Source: Thermoproteota archaeon
GTDB taxonomy: Archaea > Korarchaeota > Korarchaeia > Korarchaeales > Korarchaeaceae
Reading direction: 5' to 3'
Assembly (NCBI GenBank): GCA_027491735.1
Contig: JAOZGP010000023.1
Span: 42,656 to 106,655 of the forward strand
Length of the DNA stretch: 64,000 bases
Every line of letters starts with the position of its first letter. Within the stretch, counting starts at the first letter, position 1. The notes under the pieces were generated by a model, which did not search any database, had not been told where the DNA came from, and worked only from the letters and a program-made list of their open reading frames with translations. Position numbers and translations under genes: made by a program. This document shows, piece by piece, positions 1 through 64,000 of this stretch.

Positions 1-1374
1 GGCCCTGTCCGATCCCAGGACGGCCATGACATCCAATCCCCTCGGAAATCCTCTGGCCGGGCCAAGAGGGGTCATGACCAAGGTGAACGGCTTGTCATCC
101 CCTGTGTACGCTCCAACAGACGGAGCAACCAGGCTGCCCATGATGTAGGAGTCCGGAACGTATCTCTGACCGAAGAACCTCATCCCCTTGGAGAGGTACA
201 GGCACCTCTCCAGCTCCTCCGGACTGAGGCTGCTCGCCTGGCAGTTGCCCGTCCCGGAGTATATCCTCGGCATCCTCATGGAGTTGAGCTCCTTCCTGAG
301 CTCGCTGATCCTGCCCACGATCTGGTCTGGGGAGATCTCACTGCCGAAGACCTTGTTCATTGCGTCCAGGTACTCGCATGGGGTCAGGTCATCGGAAATC
401 CCGACGAAGAAGGAGGTCACGGCGTATATCCTCCTCCACCGCTCCGCGACTCCTGTCGAAGAGACTTGGGCAGATATCAGAGCTGCTTGGAGGGTCTCCC
501 TGTCGGCCACATCCTTGGGCACGAGCCTTCCGTTCACTGAGTTGAGGAGGAAGGTCATCCTCCCGTACCACATCATGGCCTTGAAGTACCTCCTCAGGGT
601 CTCCGAGCGAGTATAGTGTCCCCTAGGCAGGTACTGACTGTAGTCCTCCTCGTATTGAAATATCGGACTCTTAGCAAAGCCCCTATGTCCCTCTATGAGG
701 GATAGCTCCTGGCCCACCTCTTGAGAGACGTAGTCCGGAGGATCGAAGCTTGGATCCAGCAGCTTCTTCGCCACACTGAAGAAAGCAACGTTCTCCCTGG
801 CAGCCTCCCTAACAGCTCCGCTGGAGATCCCGTACAGCCTCTCGTTGGCCTTCAGGAGCTCCTTCGTTATCAATTCGAGGTCCTTGTGAAGGCTCTCCTC
901 CTCCACGCTGGAGAGGAGGTTGTCGTAAAACACGTGGTAGACGTGGAGCATGGAGTCCACAGTGACATAGGTGGGCATTCCCTCGATGAGCTTGTAAGCG
1001 TCAACCGGCTGGTCCGTGTAGAAGCTCCAAGTTCCATCACCCAGAACGACGAACCCGTTTCTCAGGAGCATGTCCTTATCGGAGTCACTTAAACGAAGTC
1101 TGTCCGTCAGATCCCAATTGGAGATCTCGTCGACGGACAGAGGGAGAGCGTACTGAGGTGTCTCGGCGCTGACCTGCTCAGAACTGAGCGTCCCTTCCAT
1201 CAGAGCAGGTTTCCTCAGACTCTCAAGCGTGTAAGGGATCTCAGAGGAGGGACCTCCCCGGGAGGAGCTGCTCACCTCCTCAGAAGGAGCTTTGTTTGTA
1301 AGGAACAGAGCAGCGGCAATGCCTGCAGCCATCAGGAGAACGGCCACCGCGGCGATCGCGCCTAAAGTCCTCAC
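1..1374 (-). CDS. DUF3160-family secreted/surface protein, running off the window start
   Basis: Manual translation of the minus strand. N-terminal hydrophobic signal (RTLGAIAAVAVLLMAAGIAAALFL), then motifs EEDYSQYLPRGHYTRS..YFKAMMWYGR and RFFGQRYVPDSY typical of DUF3160. Not in the ORF track because no stop lies inside the window. Confidence 0.75.
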   Translation of the reverse strand, partial: MRTLGAIAAVAVLLMAAGIAAALFLTNKAPSEEVSSSSRGGPSSEIPYTLESLRKPALMEGTLSSEQVSAETPQYALPLSVDEISNWDLTDRLRLSDSDKDMLLRNGFVVLGDGTWSFYTDQPVDAYKLIEGMPTYVTVDSMLHVYHVFYDNLLSSVEEESLHKDLELITKELLKANERLYGISSGAVREAARENVAFFSVAKKLLDPSFDPPDYVSQEVGQELSLIEGHRGFAKSPIFQYEEDYSQYLPRGHYTRSETLRRYFKAMMWYGRMTFLLNSVNGRLVPKDVADRETLQAALISAQVSSTGVAERWRRIYAVTSFFVGISDDLTPCEYLDAMNKVFGSEISPDQIVGRISELRKELNSMRMPRIYSGTGNCQASSLSPEELERCLYLSKGMRFFGQRYVPDSYIMGSLVAPSVGAYTGDDKPFTLVMTPLGPARGFPRGLDVMAVLGSDRA

Positions 1375-4219: not shown

Positions 4220-6010
4220 ATGGAGAGGGTCATACCGAGTCTCGACGAGATCACCCCGGAGAAGTTCAAGGAGACCTTCAAAAGAATTTTGGAGGTCAAG
4301 AGGAGGGCTGGGATAACTCCTCTCCTGGACAACCCGTCAGACCTGCTGGACAGGGCCAAGCTCTACGGGATGCAGTACAGGAACGGATCCTGGAACTGGG
4401 CCTCCAACATATGGAGCAGGTCCGCAGCAAACACCGTGGTGATAGAGGAGGACGACCAGCTTCGGAGGGAGCACAAGCTCCTCCTCATGAGGGTTCTGGA
4501 GCACATACTCGCTCAGGGACCTCTGATAAAGGTCGATGGATATGTGGGTAAGCCGGGCACGAGGGCTCAGATGCACGCAGCGGTCTATGTGGATCCTCAG
4601 TTTCCGGACATAGCCTACAGATGGAGCCAGCTCGTCTTCCCAGCCCCGCCGGAGGAGAATCCCGAGGTGGAGGTGTTCGTCATACCCCACTACCTGGGCA
4701 ACCCGAGGATCCCCGGCACGGACAGGCTTCTCATGGTGATGAGGTTCCCCCACCACAACCTCACTGTGGTGACGATGTCCTCCTACCAGGGAGAGGTAAA
4801 GAAGGCTGTCCTAACTCACTGGATCTACCACGTCTACAGGAAGGGAGGAACAGGGGAGCACGCCTCACTGAGAGAGTTCACGGTCAGAAGGGTCGATGGA
4901 GCCTGGCGCAGGATCGTGATGTGCGTGTGGGGCCTCACGGGCACGGGTAAGTCCACCCACGGCCTCTACGTCTGGACCCCAAGGAACTCGAGGATCTACG
5001 TGGAGAAGTTCGGCGTGAATCCTCTGGACCACGTGAGGGATCAGGTGATAAGGAACGATGACATAGTGGCGATATTCGAGGACAGGGTCGTGGGATCTGA
5101 GAGGGGGTCATGGACAAAGACCGAGGATCTATCCCCAGATCAGGAGGTCATGTGGAGGGCGGCCATGAGTCCCAGAGCTCTTCACGAGAACACCGAGTTC
5201 GACGAGGACGGAATGCCGAGCTTCAGGGGGGGGCTCTTCCAGTATTTCGGAGCTCCTAACAGGAACTCGAGGAGCGTCCTCTACCTGGACGACACAGGCT
5301 ACTTCGACGGGGATGTGGAGTCGAGCGGTCCCCTGACCACAGCGGTCTTCCTCTCCCCAGGTTACTTCACCGACTACGCTTGGGTGAGGATAGACGACGT
5401 GGCCCTCGCAGCCAAGTTCCTGGCCGACGGTAGAACGATAGGTCATCCCGCTCAGGCCAAGGAGGTTGTGGGGAGGATGAGGTTTGTCGCTAGGTACGCG
5501 AAGCCCTTCACGATCGGCGTCAGGAGCACGGATCACGTGGTGAGGTTCTACGAGTACTTGAGGAGGAGAAGGGAGCAGGGCAACCCTGTGGAGGTGTACG
5601 CCTGCAACACAACGGGGCGCATAGTGGCCGAGTACAGGTGGGTCAGGAAGAAGGTGGGGGACAGGGAGATGGAGGCGCCCGAGCCGATCTTGGTGGAGGT
5701 CAACGGGATACTCAGGGCGAGGGGAGGAACGAGGCCCTCTATAGAGGAGACAGAGCTTTTCCTGCTGCAGGCCAGCAGAGGAGCGGTGAAGTTCAAGCCC
5801 CATCCCGTCTGGAGGGAGAAGGTCATGGTCCCAGATGAGGTCCCGGGCATCAGCAAGGAGAGGCTTAGGGAGCTCGATCCCACAAGCTACATGGACATGG
5901 ACGAGTTCAGAAGGCTTCTGAAGGCCCAGATCGAGGAGAGCAAATACTACCTGGACAGAGACTGTCCAGGTCTTCCCAGTGAGATATACACAGCCATGGA
6001 CTTCGACTGA
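4220..6010 (+). CDS. pckA: Phosphoenolpyruvate carboxykinase (ATP-type-like)
   Basis: 596 aa. YQGEVKK, H in GEHAS, P-loop WGLTGTGKST, NDD metal motif, ENT and RNSR motifs. Confidence 0.75.
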   Translation: MERVIPSLDEITPEKFKETFKRILEVKRRAGITPLLDNPSDLLDRAKLYGMQYRNGSWNWASNIWSRSAANTVVIEEDDQLRREHKLLLMRVLEHILAQGPLIKVDGYVGKPGTRAQMHAAVYVDPQFPDIAYRWSQLVFPAPPEENPEVEVFVIPHYLGNPRIPGTDRLLMVMRFPHHNLTVVTMSSYQGEVKKAVLTHWIYHVYRKGGTGEHASLREFTVRRVDGAWRRIVMCVWGLTGTGKSTHGLYVWTPRNSRIYVEKFGVNPLDHVRDQVIRNDDIVAIFEDRVVGSERGSWTKTEDLSPDQEVMWRAAMSPRALHENTEFDEDGMPSFRGGLFQYFGAPNRNSRSVLYLDDTGYFDGDVESSGPLTTAVFLSPGYFTDYAWVRIDDVALAAKFLADGRTIGHPAQAKEVVGRMRFVARYAKPFTIGVRSTDHVVRFYEYLRRRREQGNPVEVYACNTTGRIVAEYRWVRKKVGDREMEAPEPILVEVNGILRARGGTRPSIEETELFLLQASRGAVKFKPHPVWREKVMVPDEVPGISKERLRELDPTSYMDMDEFRRLLKAQIEESKYYLDRDCPGLPSEIYTAMDFD

Positions 6011-6172
6011 CCGTTCTGGTTCTCCACCGCATTTGACCTTCAATACATCCGTGGCGAAGGACCTCCCCCCTCAGGTCTCATCGGAGGGCTTTCAGGGAGA
6101 GGGCCCCATGCTCACCCTCCTAAGCTCGCCCTTTCGGGCTTATCCTCACCTCCTCACATCTTGAGCGGAGCT
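6011..6172 (-). ncRNA. Orphan TnpB omega-RNA-like structured element, copy 1
   Basis: Colinear homology with 63434-63616: AGCTCCGCTC.AGATGTG, AAGCCCGAAAGGGCG, GAAAGCCC, ATGA-N3-CTGA loop, terminal hairpin and AGAACGG end. It abuts the pckA stop codon. Confidence 0.6.
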
Positions 6173-6420
6173 CATCCTCGCTGCATCTGCTCCGACTGCG
6201 AGATCAGTCCACTCCATCGACCAGATAGCGCACGAAGTCCGGGGACTGACCCTCCCGATCCCACTGGGAGGATCGCTGGGAAGGCGTTCGGCGAGTTCAA
6301 CGAGAGGACCTCATCCTCGTGGGGGTCCTCCTGGGGGATTATGCTGCGTGCCGAGGCCCAAGACACCCCGCAGGAGAGGTATGTGAAGGTGCTGCTTGAC
6401 CTAATGATCAGATAGCTTAG

Positions 6421-7923
6421 CTATTCGAACTCTATTGTTGCTGGGGGCTTGTTTGTGACGTCGTAGAGAACCCTGTTGACACCCTCAACCTCGTTGACTA
6501 TCCTGGAGGAGATCTTCTCCATGAGGCTCCACGGGAGCTTGGCAAAGCTTGCGGTCATGGCGTCAGCACTCTTCACAATCCTCAGGGCGATCATGTACTC
6601 ATATGTCCTCCTATCTCCCTGCACACCGACGCTCCTCAACGACAGAAGAACGGGAAAGGCCTGCCAGACCTTTCTGTAGTATCCCGATCTCCTCATCTCC
6701 TCCTCAACTATCTTATCAGCCTTCCTGAGCATTCTGAGCTTGTCCTCCGTCACCTCGCCCACTATCCTTATCGCCAGCCCCGGACCTGGGAAGGGGTGCC
6801 TCTCCACGAGCTTCCTTGGAAGGCCAAGCATCCTGGCGAGCTCCCTCACCTCGTCCTTGTAGAGGCCTGAGAGGGGTTCTATGAGCTCCCTCCCGGTGTC
6901 AGGCATCACCACGTTGTGGTGGCTCTTTATCCTGTGGGCAGCTCTACTGCTTGCGGCGCTCTCTATTCTGTCGGGGTAGATGGTCCCCTGACCTATGAAC
7001 TCAAACCCCCTAGACTCCCTGCTGAAGATCTCAGCGAACTTCTCGGCTATGATCCTCCTCTTCTCCTCCGGATCCACAACCCCTCTGAGCGCCTTCAGGA
7101 ACTCGTAGGATGCGTCTATGTACCTCACCCTGAAGCCCATCCTCTTCAGAATGTTCAGAACCTCCTTAGGCTCGTCCTCCCTCAGAAGCCCCGTGTTCAC
7201 AAAGAGGACCTCCAGTCCGTCCCCGACAGCCCTCTTCATCAGCAGGGCGGCGGTCATTGAGTCCACTCCACCGCTCACGGCCACGAGAACCTTTCCCCTT
7301 CCAACCCTCCTCCTCACCTCCTCGATCTTCTCCTCCGCGTATCCCATCATGTTCCAGTCCCTCCTGGCCCTGCAGATCGTCAGGAAGTTGTCCAGGACCT
7401 TCCTCCCCCTCGGGGTGTGCTTCACCTCCGGGTGGAACTGCACCCCATAAAATCCATTGGGCAACCTGAAGGCGGCGATCCTAGTGTTCCTGGTGTACGC
7501 CAGGACCTTGGATCCCCCAGGAGGCTCCACGACCTGATCCCTGTGGCTCATCCAAACCTTCTCCCTCCTCCTCAGCCCCTTGAAGATCTGGTCCCTCGCC
7601 CTGAGGTACAGGGTGGCCACGCCGAACTCCCCCGCCCCCCTCTCCACCCTCCCCCCGTAGAGCTGAGCCAGGAGCTGATGTCCGTAGCAGATCCCCAGAA
7701 CCGGAACCCCTCTGTCGGACAGCTCGTCGAGATAGCTTCTGTCGATTGTTGGAGCATCCTCCTCGTAGACGCTTCTCGGTCCTCCTGAGAGGATAACCCC
7801 ATCTACGTCTTCCCTCGGCTTGAAATCCCTCCAGGGAATTATCTCTCCTCTAACCCCCAGCTCCCGCACCCTCCTGTTTATTAGGTGGGTGTACTGGGAC
7901 CCGAGATCCACGACGCAGAGCAT
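6421..7923 (-). CDS. guaA: GMP synthase (glutamine-hydrolysing)
   Basis: DLGSQY, GICYGHQ, QFHPEV, SGGVDS, IKSHHN, HPFPGPGL and C-terminal KPPATIEFE. Confidence 0.97.
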   Translation of the reverse strand: MLCVVDLGSQYTHLINRRVRELGVRGEIIPWRDFKPREDVDGVILSGGPRSVYEEDAPTIDRSYLDELSDRGVPVLGICYGHQLLAQLYGGRVERGAGEFGVATLYLRARDQIFKGLRRREKVWMSHRDQVVEPPGGSKVLAYTRNTRIAAFRLPNGFYGVQFHPEVKHTPRGRKVLDNFLTICRARRDWNMMGYAEEKIEEVRRRVGRGKVLVAVSGGVDSMTAALLMKRAVGDGLEVLFVNTGLLREDEPKEVLNILKRMGFRVRYIDASYEFLKALRGVVDPEEKRRIIAEKFAEIFSRESRGFEFIGQGTIYPDRIESAASSRAAHRIKSHHNVVMPDTGRELIEPLSGLYKDEVRELARMLGLPRKLVERHPFPGPGLAIRIVGEVTEDKLRMLRKADKIVEEEMRRSGYYRKVWQAFPVLLSLRSVGVQGDRRTYEYMIALRIVKSADAMTASFAKLPWSLMEKISSRIVNEVEGVNRVLYDVTNKPPATIEFE

Positions 7924-63433: not shown

Positions 63434-63616
63434 CCGTTCTTGTTCTCCGCTACATTCGAAGCTTTTGACACTGGCGGAAAACCTTCCCTCCTCAGGATTC
63501 ATTAGGGGGCTTTCTGGGGAACAGGGACTCCCCACATCTTCAGTTTTCTTAGCTCCGCCCTTTCGGGCTTCCCTTCCCTCTCCTCTCACCACCCATCCCA
63601 CATCTCGAGCGGAGCT
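63434..63616 (-). ncRNA. Orphan TnpB omega-RNA-like structured element, copy 2, with its own TATA box
   Basis: Homologous to 6011-6172. Contains AAGATGTGGGGAG..TTCCCCAGAAAGCCCCC..ATGA..CTGAGGAGGGAAGG and ends AGAACGG. TTTATAAA at 63640-63647. Confidence 0.65.
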
Positions 63617-63708
63617 TGTTCATCGTTGAACCATTCACCTTTATAAATTTGGATATCACAAAAATCTTCATATGTTACGAATACAACATTATATGTTTCT
63701 GCCCCACC

Positions 63709-63740
63709 TGTAGACATAGATGTAAACATTGATGTTTACA
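63709..63740. promoter_or_regulatory. Triple operator-like array TGTAGACA-N4-TGTAAACA-N4-TGTTTACA
   Basis: Same unit and spacing as 52939-52970. Confidence 0.55.
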
Positions 63741-64000
63741 ACAGAAATAGGGTTTGTGCTGGAGGCTGAGGATCCACTGCATCAGAGGAAGATGGGTGGT
63801 GGGTTCGACTGAGGGCCAAATGCAGCAGCTGGTCAGGACGTAAGGCAAGGAAAGCCATCGATCGGTTGAAGAAGGGCAGGGGATATTTAAATATTTCAAA
63901 ACTACATCCTTTTGTACTTAAGAACAGCGAGCGTGAGGTCGCCGCCTGCGGCCGATGGGCGCCGCTCCAATCCCTGCGGGGAATGACCCGGATGGGAGCC

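Follow-up and report, generated by a model that had tools for sequence, protein, structure and literature searches.

Two gene-less elements in the window

The window, which is the whole 64,000-nt stretch of DNA analysed here, belongs to a 1.36-Mb archaeal genome (G000) in 41 contigs that is 88% complete. Two minus-strand segments of the window, at 6011-6172 and 63434-63616, had been described as relatives of one another in an earlier, sequence-only reading, and both are present at these coordinates and are homologous. Every block quoted in that reading was found again: AGCTCCGCTC(A/G)AGATGTG, AAGCCCGAAAGGGCG(G)AGCT, GAAAGCCC, the ATGA-N3-CTGA motif, and the end GGAGAAC(C/A)AGAACGG. In a MAFFT alignment the two copies share a mean column identity of 76% over 243 columns. 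Copy 1 sits downstream of guaA (6421-7923), and its end at base 6011 directly follows the TGA stop codon (6008-6010) of ORF 4220-6010, as had been noticed before; this ORF is PEPCK-like (Pfam PEPCK_ATP, E 1.4e-14). Neither copy contains tnpA or tnpB, judging from the list of open reading frames and from tblastn with TnpA and TnpB, which bears out the first description. The limits first given to the segments were too narrow: the elements reach 75-105 nt further in the 5′ direction, into an attached left end (LE), so that copy 1 extends from 6011 to about 6245-6252 and copy 2 from 63434 to 63705. The features of both copies are listed here, with E-values from R1, a covariance model built from four copies in G000.

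6011..6172, minus strand: copy 1, omega-RNA-like module from helix P1 to the 3′ tail (R1 E 1.3e-37)
6123..6171, minus strand: copy 1, P1 hairpin, GCUCCGCUC ... GCGAGCU, with an inner AAGCCCGAAAGGGC hairpin
6065..6087, minus strand: copy 1, P3 stem with the K-turn-like loop GAUGA-GAC-CUGA
6011..6061, minus strand: copy 1, P4 hairpin and the tail CCAGAACGG, which is the right-end boundary
6173..6252, minus strand: copy 1, degenerate left-end remnant without a TATA box, alignable through its TTCGTGCGCTAT block with the left end of subfamily B; its 5′ boundary falls somewhere from 6245 to 6252
5994..6010, minus strand: copy 1, flank and putative guide source, running antisense to the final codons of the PEPCK-like gene and to its stop
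63434..63616, minus strand: copy 2, omega-RNA-like module, P1-P4 and the tail AAGAACGG (R1 E 1.9e-39)
63486..63508, minus strand: copy 2, P3 stem with the K-turn-like loop AAUGA-AUC-CUGA
63617..63705, minus strand: copy 2, left end, beginning GGGGCAGAAACATATAATGTTGTATTCGTAACATA (subfamily-B LE motif)
63640-63647, minus strand: copy 2, TATA-like box TTTATAAA, about 25 nt upstream of P1
63417..63433, minus strand: copy 2, flank and inferred putative guide source

Further copies in the genome and in other archaea

When copy 1 was searched by BLAST against its own genome, it recovered copy 2 (E 6.8e-7), a third copy at C27:17952-18122 (E 5.6e-8), and a fourth that spans the end of contig C7 and the start of contig C38, two contigs which overlap by 127 nt. 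These four copies are mutually 75-80% identical. The covariance model R1, built from them, gives 22 matches in G000 at E≤1, with 13 distinct loci at E≤1e-4, so that the first account, which knew of only two copies, has to be widened to at least 13 related loci. In other genomes, R1 found one weak match in G003 and none in the same-genus genomes G001 and G002; similarly, the three copies in G093 had no counterparts matched by R1 in G071, which is of the same genus as G093.

A scan of 185,579 species genomes with a pattern for the family returned 28 loci, while the same pattern returned 0 loci in viral contigs. Twelve of the 28 have tnpB coding sequence upstream and 11 are short forms that carry P1 and no open reading frame; the remainder comprises two shorter forms without P1, one locus with unrelated upstream sequence, and two that are cut by contig ends. 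The hosts are Thermococci, Archaeoglobaceae, Bathyarchaeia, Korarchaeia-type Thermoproteota, Acidilobaceae (Ca. Hestiella), and Ca. Baldrarchaeum, and short forms were found across several archaeal phyla.

The parent element

The sequence-only reading had likened the 3′ half of these segments to an RNA that overlaps tnpB 3′ ends in archaea, and this likeness turns out to be true homology, as the same P1-P4 module ends tnpB genes. In relatives, tnpB genes, whether intact or decayed, carry the module at their 3′ end, and it runs to the element boundary. Within G000, the R1 matches at C28:6221-6440 and C35:7589-7843 coincide with weak remnants of the TnpB zinc ribbon, which can be read in frame as ...CxxCG..LSPNG..CxxCG..DRD..NIRLR... 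before passing into the 3′ half of the family. In relatives, R1 matches fall at the end of tnpB reading frames, one example being the 351-aa ORF of locus L045, which ends inside the module. Altogether, the module follows or overlaps tnpB and ends in ...CAGAACGG at 12/28 scanned loci and additionally at L045, L047, and L049.

Seven full-length elements have two reading frames with a slight overlap, the first coding for 207-222 aa and the second, tnpB, for 373-412 aa. The first ORF of L095 matches HTH_17/MerR and Resolvase (E 3e-23), and its second ORF matches OrfB_IS605 and the Cas12f1-like TNB domain (E 3e-22), which is the IS607 arrangement; by its gene content, therefore, the parent is of IS607 type, with an HTH and serine-recombinase tnpA upstream of tnpB. 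Full-length elements measure about 1,845-1,854 bp and have the right end ...CAGAACGG, the terminal GG of which is partly imposed by the search pattern. At the opposite end, 13/14 LE motif matches begin with GGG, and the remaining match, in L085 (TGGGC), starts one base upstream of its GGG. No target-site duplication was seen in the element flanks, and by eye the left and right termini are not inverted repeats. The traits reported for IS607 in the sections cited here, which are the lack of terminal inverted repeats (TIR) and target-site duplications (TSD) and the presence of GG at the junctions, agree with these observations (10.1101/2023.11.20.567912).

Two internal deletions and a retained promoter

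The LE motif takes the form GGGCTGTTTCATAGATAGCAACAAAC in subfamily A; in subfamily B it is GGGGCAGAAACATATAATGTTGTATTCGTAACATA. It stands upstream of the core, at a distance of 1756-1762 nt in the seven full-length elements and of 98-178 nt in seven short forms. Copy 2, starting at 63705, and copy 4 carry the subfamily-B motif, while copies 1 and 3 have a weak version of it. When the short forms are compared with full-length subfamily-B left ends, the LE is seen to be kept through the TATA box, roughly to the tnpA start codon, after which the short forms join directly to hairpin P1. A second deletion has removed about 95-110 nt between P1 and P2, a stretch that in the parent TnpB encodes the second CxxC and the last RuvC (DRD/NI) motif. 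This two-deletion architecture, consisting of the LE with its promoter, P1, a gap, and P2-P4, turns up repeatedly, in several phyla and in two LE subfamilies. As for the TATA box, copy 2 has TTTATAAA, copy 4 has TTTATGAA, and L107 has TTTATAAG; a TATA-like box of this kind stands 25-35 nt upstream of P1 in these three and in most of the relatives' short forms, and it is gone from copies 1 and 3. One earlier candidate was set aside here: the sequence upstream of copy 4 had been taken for a coding remnant of RuvC-II, and the same sequence is the LE motif of full-length elements.

The window segments are thus the right-hand parts of internal-deletion derivatives of IS607, about 235-272 bp long, and not free-standing RNA genes of obscure origin. 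Copies 2 and 4, together with 7 short forms elsewhere, are clear cases of a short element that lacks open reading frames and has kept both parental ends. Neither TIR nor TSD was found, nor the palindromic ends of Y1 transposases that mark classical MITEs and PATEs, and the parent transposase is a serine recombinase; the derivatives therefore work like a MITE or a PATE, and are strictly neither.

Other truncated pieces of the same kind of element occur in G000. At C8:10209-11022 (minus strand), an LE is followed by a tnpA with a stop and a frameshift and by tnpB codons for amino acids 1-47, directly after which come the final ~30 nt of the right end. The start of contig C36 (~121-290, minus strand) holds an LE and a fragment of tnpA for amino acids 1-31, and at C38:382-733 (minus strand) tnpA fragments lie in opposite orientation right after copy 4.

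An RNA structure partly written into coding sequence

The RNA structure was examined on an alignment of 25 short forms (alignment A4), whose consensus, computed by RNAalifold, has five helices: P1, an inner P1b, P2, P3, and P4. Over the 25 short forms, 93.8% of 747 cells are paired, and compensatory changes, in which both sides of a pair have changed, are present in 19/31 pairs. None of 500 shuffles reached any of five pairing measures (0/500), and slid controls were 35-54% paired. The sequence-only reading had held that pairing is kept while loops diverge, and the 19/31 compensatory pairs on 25 sequences sustain it. The fold energies of the single window copies are no lower than those of shuffled sequences (z −0.21 and +0.02), and for this reason the support for the structure comes from covariation and not from stability.

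A long-range stem between 5′ GCUCCGC and 3′ GCGGAG, proposed by RNAalifold from the four G000 copies, was overturned by the 25 sequences, where the partner of 5′ GCUCCGC is the GCGGAGC that immediately follows the inner hairpin, and 3′ GCGGAG has its partner inside P4. The model R1 contains this wrong stem, and its matches stay valid as sequence and profile matches.

In the parent, P1 lies inside the zinc-finger codons of TnpB, where the Ser-Leu-Cys-Pro codons pair with those for Gly-(Gln/His/Arg)-Arg in a stem of 10-12 bp, seen in 14/15 full-length sequences in which the motif was located. Within the tnpB coding sequence, 137/140 cells are paired over the first ten pairs. One of these coding pairs occurs as C:G 8 times, G:C 3 times, A:U twice, and G:U once, and sets a synonymous Leu site against a Gln/His site; another is G:C in 8 sequences and C:G in 5. 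P1 is an RNA structure that is written into coding sequence and inherited by the short forms.

A canonical K-turn consists of a stem, a 3-nt bulge, and tandem sheared G.A pairs, and it binds L7Ae. The AUGA and the GA of the P3 loop are invariant in 25/25 short forms, and the arrangement stem-(R)AU-GA...GA-stem is one that we take to fit the K-turn or K-loop pattern. In L045 and L102, the UGA of this loop is the tnpB stop codon. In all features open to test from sequence, the module is an omega-RNA scaffold.

The inner part of P1 (AUGUGGG...AAGCCCGAAWGGG) resembles P2 with its linker (AUGUGGGGAG...CCCCCCGAAAGCC) in all family members, for example at window positions 63515-63615, as if the scaffold held an internal duplication.

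Comparison with catalogued RNA families

At the Rfam gathering threshold, the window gives 0 hits. When 21 loci were searched at E≤1, no family was found on the elements, and only tRNAs and unrelated weak matches appeared elsewhere. A link to the Rfam families HgcC or SscA was not upheld, in that neither scores above its gathering threshold on the elements. HgcC (RF00062) has 13 sub-threshold matches in G000, the best at 37.9 bits against a cut-off of 50, and all of them lie away from the elements; they include C23:32814-32936, C36:76759-76876, C18:48550-48654, and C27:85235-85341, together with 9 more. Several of these weak matches lie just downstream of zinc-ribbon remnants from a second, unrelated tnpB family, and the HgcC-like matches look like a second set of omega-RNA relics in G000. 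At C14:3830-4080 (minus strand), an HgcC-like 3′ end (GGAATCCTCGCACTTCAGTGCGGGGAGG) directly abuts the P3-P4 module of the IS607-type family, which suggests nested or adjacent insertions of two element types.

Mobility, empty sites, and partner genes

In the same-genus genome G001, the PEPCK stop codon is followed by 8 nt and then by CTCACCCTCCCGAT...GGGAGGA, which in G000 is met about 235 nt further on; as G001 lacks this insert of ~235 nt, copy 1 is an insertion relative to G001. No empty site was found for copy 2, whose flanks have no counterpart in G001-G003, or for copy 3, whose flanks are rearranged in G001 without a clean junction.

Signs of recent movement come from Ca. Hestiella, where short copies that are 95-97% identical stand at loci with different flanks (L090 and L097, for instance, are 96% identical), which implies that they transposed as short forms; in the same Ca. 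Hestiella metagenome-assembled genome (MAG), L095 has intact tnpA and tnpB. Short forms thus look to have been recently mobile where an intact parent is present. Near-identical copies and an autonomous partner occur together in Ca. Hestiella MAGs and not in G000, where the copies are 75-80% identical and have no intact partner.

Intact cognate tnpA or tnpB was not found in G000, which is 88% complete, and tblastn with seven TnpA/TnpB pairs gives fragments there. C-terminal TnpB remnants lie on C28, C35, C38:30914-31177, C31, C26, C21, and C27:108638; there is one diverged intact TnpA-like ORF (C36:72152-72812), and the only sizeable tnpB, at a contig end on C18, belongs to another family. The divergence of the G000 copies, the missing TATA box in two of them, and the failure to find intact cognate genes make it most likely that these copies are fossils, old relics that do not move at present. 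Five other genomes that bear the module, two of them complete single contigs and a third in two contigs, were checked for an intact cognate tnpB at 50% identity or more, and 0/5 have one: G071 and G038 have tnpB pseudogenes, and the only intact TnpB proteins of G093 and G076 are paralogues with 27-39% identity. In these five genomes, it follows that service in trans is not currently possible.

A tree of 44 3′ modules, built on about 138 columns and with many unresolved forks, needs 9 changes between the short and full labels, at least 4 of which are forced by well-supported branches. This suggests several origins of short forms, or several exchanges of sequence between them and local full-length elements.

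Putative guides at the 3′ flanks

The putative guides of G000 match their own flank only, and no second genomic match was found for them in guide register. The sequence-only reading had pointed to the antisense relation between the putative guide of copy 1 and the 3′ end of pckA; no special meaning of this relation is supported, and it arises simply from the insertion site of the element. Positions 9-24 of the 3′ flank of copy 2 do have an exact 16-nt match at C4:4721-4736, which includes GAGGAGGG and is not in guide register; this is probably a coincidence of a kind resembling a ribosome-binding site.

The best explanation and its rivals

Two possibilities had been put forward at the outset, that these are stand-alone guide scaffolds or that they are non-autonomous elements served in trans. 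The second fits best, considering the left end shared with the parent, the parental TATA box in copies 2 and 4, and the short copies that stand beside an intact parent elsewhere. Building on the homology to tnpB 3′ ends, the common left and right ends, the covarying structure, the absence of genes, and the insertion polymorphism, we consider it quite probable that the segments are the RNA-coding right part of a miniature, gene-less derivative of an archaeal IS607 element. The parent, of ~1.85 kb, comprises an LE that begins with GGG and holds the tnpA promoter, then tnpA, tnpB, and the right end ...CAGAACGG. The miniature keeps the LE to about the tnpA start, then P1, and after it P2, P3 with the K-turn-like loop, P4, and the tail. 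The LE promoter would drive a transcript through P1-P4 into the flank, and the resulting omega-RNA would have the adjacent host DNA as its guide. After excision, a cognate TnpB acting in trans would cut the vacated site, so that the element is restored, and TnpA, also in trans, would move the element. Transcription, cutting by TnpB, and mobilisation by TnpA in trans are drawn here by analogy from TnpB systems, as described in the portions of three reports (PMC8612924; PMC10055086; 10.1101/2023.11.20.567912).

A different and unlikely history is that these are domesticated, stand-alone RNA genes, which the host, or a TnpB-like protein other than the cognate one, retains independently of the parent transposon. 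Promoter-bearing scaffolds without a cognate TnpB would then persist through a life of their own, as K-turn small RNPs, perhaps with L7Ae, for which we see a small chance; such scaffolds might serve distant TnpB paralogues, or might regulate whatever is at the 3′ flank, as guides or in antisense. The short forms do retain a TATA box and intact helices though an intact cognate tnpB is absent from all five genomes and from G000, the AUGA...GA of P3 is invariant in 25/25 short forms though the stop codon is no longer needed, the paralogues of 27-39% identity in G093 and G076 are intact, and T. kodakarensis expresses HgcC4 and HgcC5 from loci that are not at transposase genes, according to the part of the report cited (PMC4247193). 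However, positions are not conserved, given that G001 and G002 have no copy, G003 has one weak match, and the copies of G093 are unmatched in G071. For copy 1, G001 shows the site without the insert; the putative guides have no match beyond their own flank; the TATA box is gone from copies 1 and 3; and the 75-80% identity among the G000 copies is what is expected of decaying repeats.

That the short forms are plain deletion debris of dead IS607 copies, with a structure that was merely inherited and a form that was never selected or mobilised, is quite improbable. G000 does hold other deletion classes (C8:10209-11022, the start of C36, and several C-terminal remnants of tnpB), and its copies are diverged. 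But debris sits poorly with the same two-deletion architecture in two LE subfamilies and several phyla, with short copies 95-97% identical at different loci with different flanks, and with the four or more label changes forced by well-supported branches of the tree. The K-turn-like motif on a G/C stem, and the origin of Thermococcus HgcC RNAs inside transposase genes, as stated in the portion of the paper cited (PMC4247193), could also bring to mind a member of a catalogued archaeal small-RNA family, such as HgcC, SscA, or a box C/D or H/ACA guide RNA; with no match in Rfam, and with the weak RF00062 matches all at other places, we regard membership as extremely improbable. The miniature IS607 derivative remains our preferred reading, with the elements of G000 probably inert.

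Relation to known systems

The nearest parallel is with the gene-less derivatives of IS200/IS605 called PATEs, which, in the sections of the report cited, often encode omega-RNAs that need TnpB in trans (Meers et al. 2023, PMC10055086). The archaeal miniatures are like them in being non-autonomous, in keeping both transposon ends and a guide-RNA scaffold, and in needing TnpA and TnpB in trans; unlike them, as far as those sections go, they have an IS607 parent (a serine recombinase acting on dsDNA), no palindromic hairpin ends, ends of the form GGG... and ...CGG without inverted repeats, thermophilic archaeal hosts, and a different, uncatalogued RNA family (PMC10055086). The bacterial IS607 element CboIStron shares with the archaeal parent a serine-recombinase TnpA together with TnpB, an omega-RNA at the tnpB 3′ end that abuts the right end, and GG at the junctions with no TIR or TSD, in the portion of the report cited (10.1101/2023.11.20.567912). 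The same portion describes an artificial mini-IS, without both genes, that is excised by TnpA in trans (10.1101/2023.11.20.567912). Whereas CboIStron is bacterial and the mini-IS is engineered, the miniatures here are natural, archaeal, and without a group I intron; and unlike the CboIStron RNA as presented there, the archaeal family has a hairpin in zinc-finger codons and a K-turn-like loop (10.1101/2023.11.20.567912).

HgcC of the Thermococcales is likewise an archaeal small RNA from within or at the end of a tnpB-type gene, with some copies detached: in T. kodakarensis, the part of the source cited has HgcC transcribed from within transposase genes, and HgcC4 and HgcC5 as the detached cases already mentioned (PMC4247193). 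It differs in being another sequence and structure family (RF00062). TldR guide RNAs, on the part of their description cited, are also TnpB-derived guide scaffolds and are used outside transposition; TldR has a linked protein gene and a conserved target (PMC10705468), whereas for the archaeal short forms neither a linked protein nor a conserved position nor a second target was found.

In the literature, we found nothing on archaeal MITEs derived from IS607, on orphan omega-RNAs there, or on a link between TnpB and L7Ae or K-turns, although supplements may list such RNAs; the L7Ae RIP-seq paper (PMC5539422) does not mention transposases. Gene-less elements with a guide scaffold are known in principle, and the RNA family of archaeal IS607 is uncatalogued, having no Rfam match. 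Supplements aside, we found no description of the IS607-derived archaeal counterpart, its RNA family, the coding-embedded hairpin, or the K-turn-like omega-RNA element.

The analysis defines an omega-RNA family of archaeal IS607 elements with four hairpins backed by covariation, one of them in the zinc-finger codons of tnpB, and with a K-turn-like loop, which in some elements shares bases with the stop codon of tnpB. Natural miniature derivatives of IS607 keep exactly the promoter and the guide scaffold, which speaks for a role of guide-RNA homing in non-autonomous elements as well. Annotators of thermophilic archaea gain from them an explanation for one class of "intergenic conserved structured RNAs", and the compact, thermostable pairs of TnpB and omega-RNA are candidates for tests. 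Should the stand-alone scaffold reading be true, the short forms would show the domestication of transposon guide RNAs at an early stage, without a linked protein.

Minor observations around the two copies

On the plus strand of the window, positions 6267-6415 (ORF 6161-6415) are a 3′ fragment of a gene that is full-length in the same-genus G001 (contig C136). In G000, this fragment is joined to the hairpin downstream of PEPCK at a GGAGG microhomology, and a deletion or rearrangement therefore adjoins copy 1. The 84-aa ORF 6161-6415 is partly an artefact, as it runs antisense into copy 1.

Sixteen nucleotides upstream of the left end of copy 2 stands a near-perfect palindrome, TGTAAACAT-C-AATGTTTACA (63721-63740), which is absent from L107, the nearest outside relative. 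Beyond it, at the right end of contig C40, window positions 63874-64000 (minus strand) are a 127-nt stretch identical to the start of contig C39, with 116 nt identical to C32:43998-44113 and a 78% similarity to C9:28804-28876, where the repeat is fused directly to a P2-P4 module of the IS607-derived family. It looks like another repeated end of a mobile element at which the assembly breaks.
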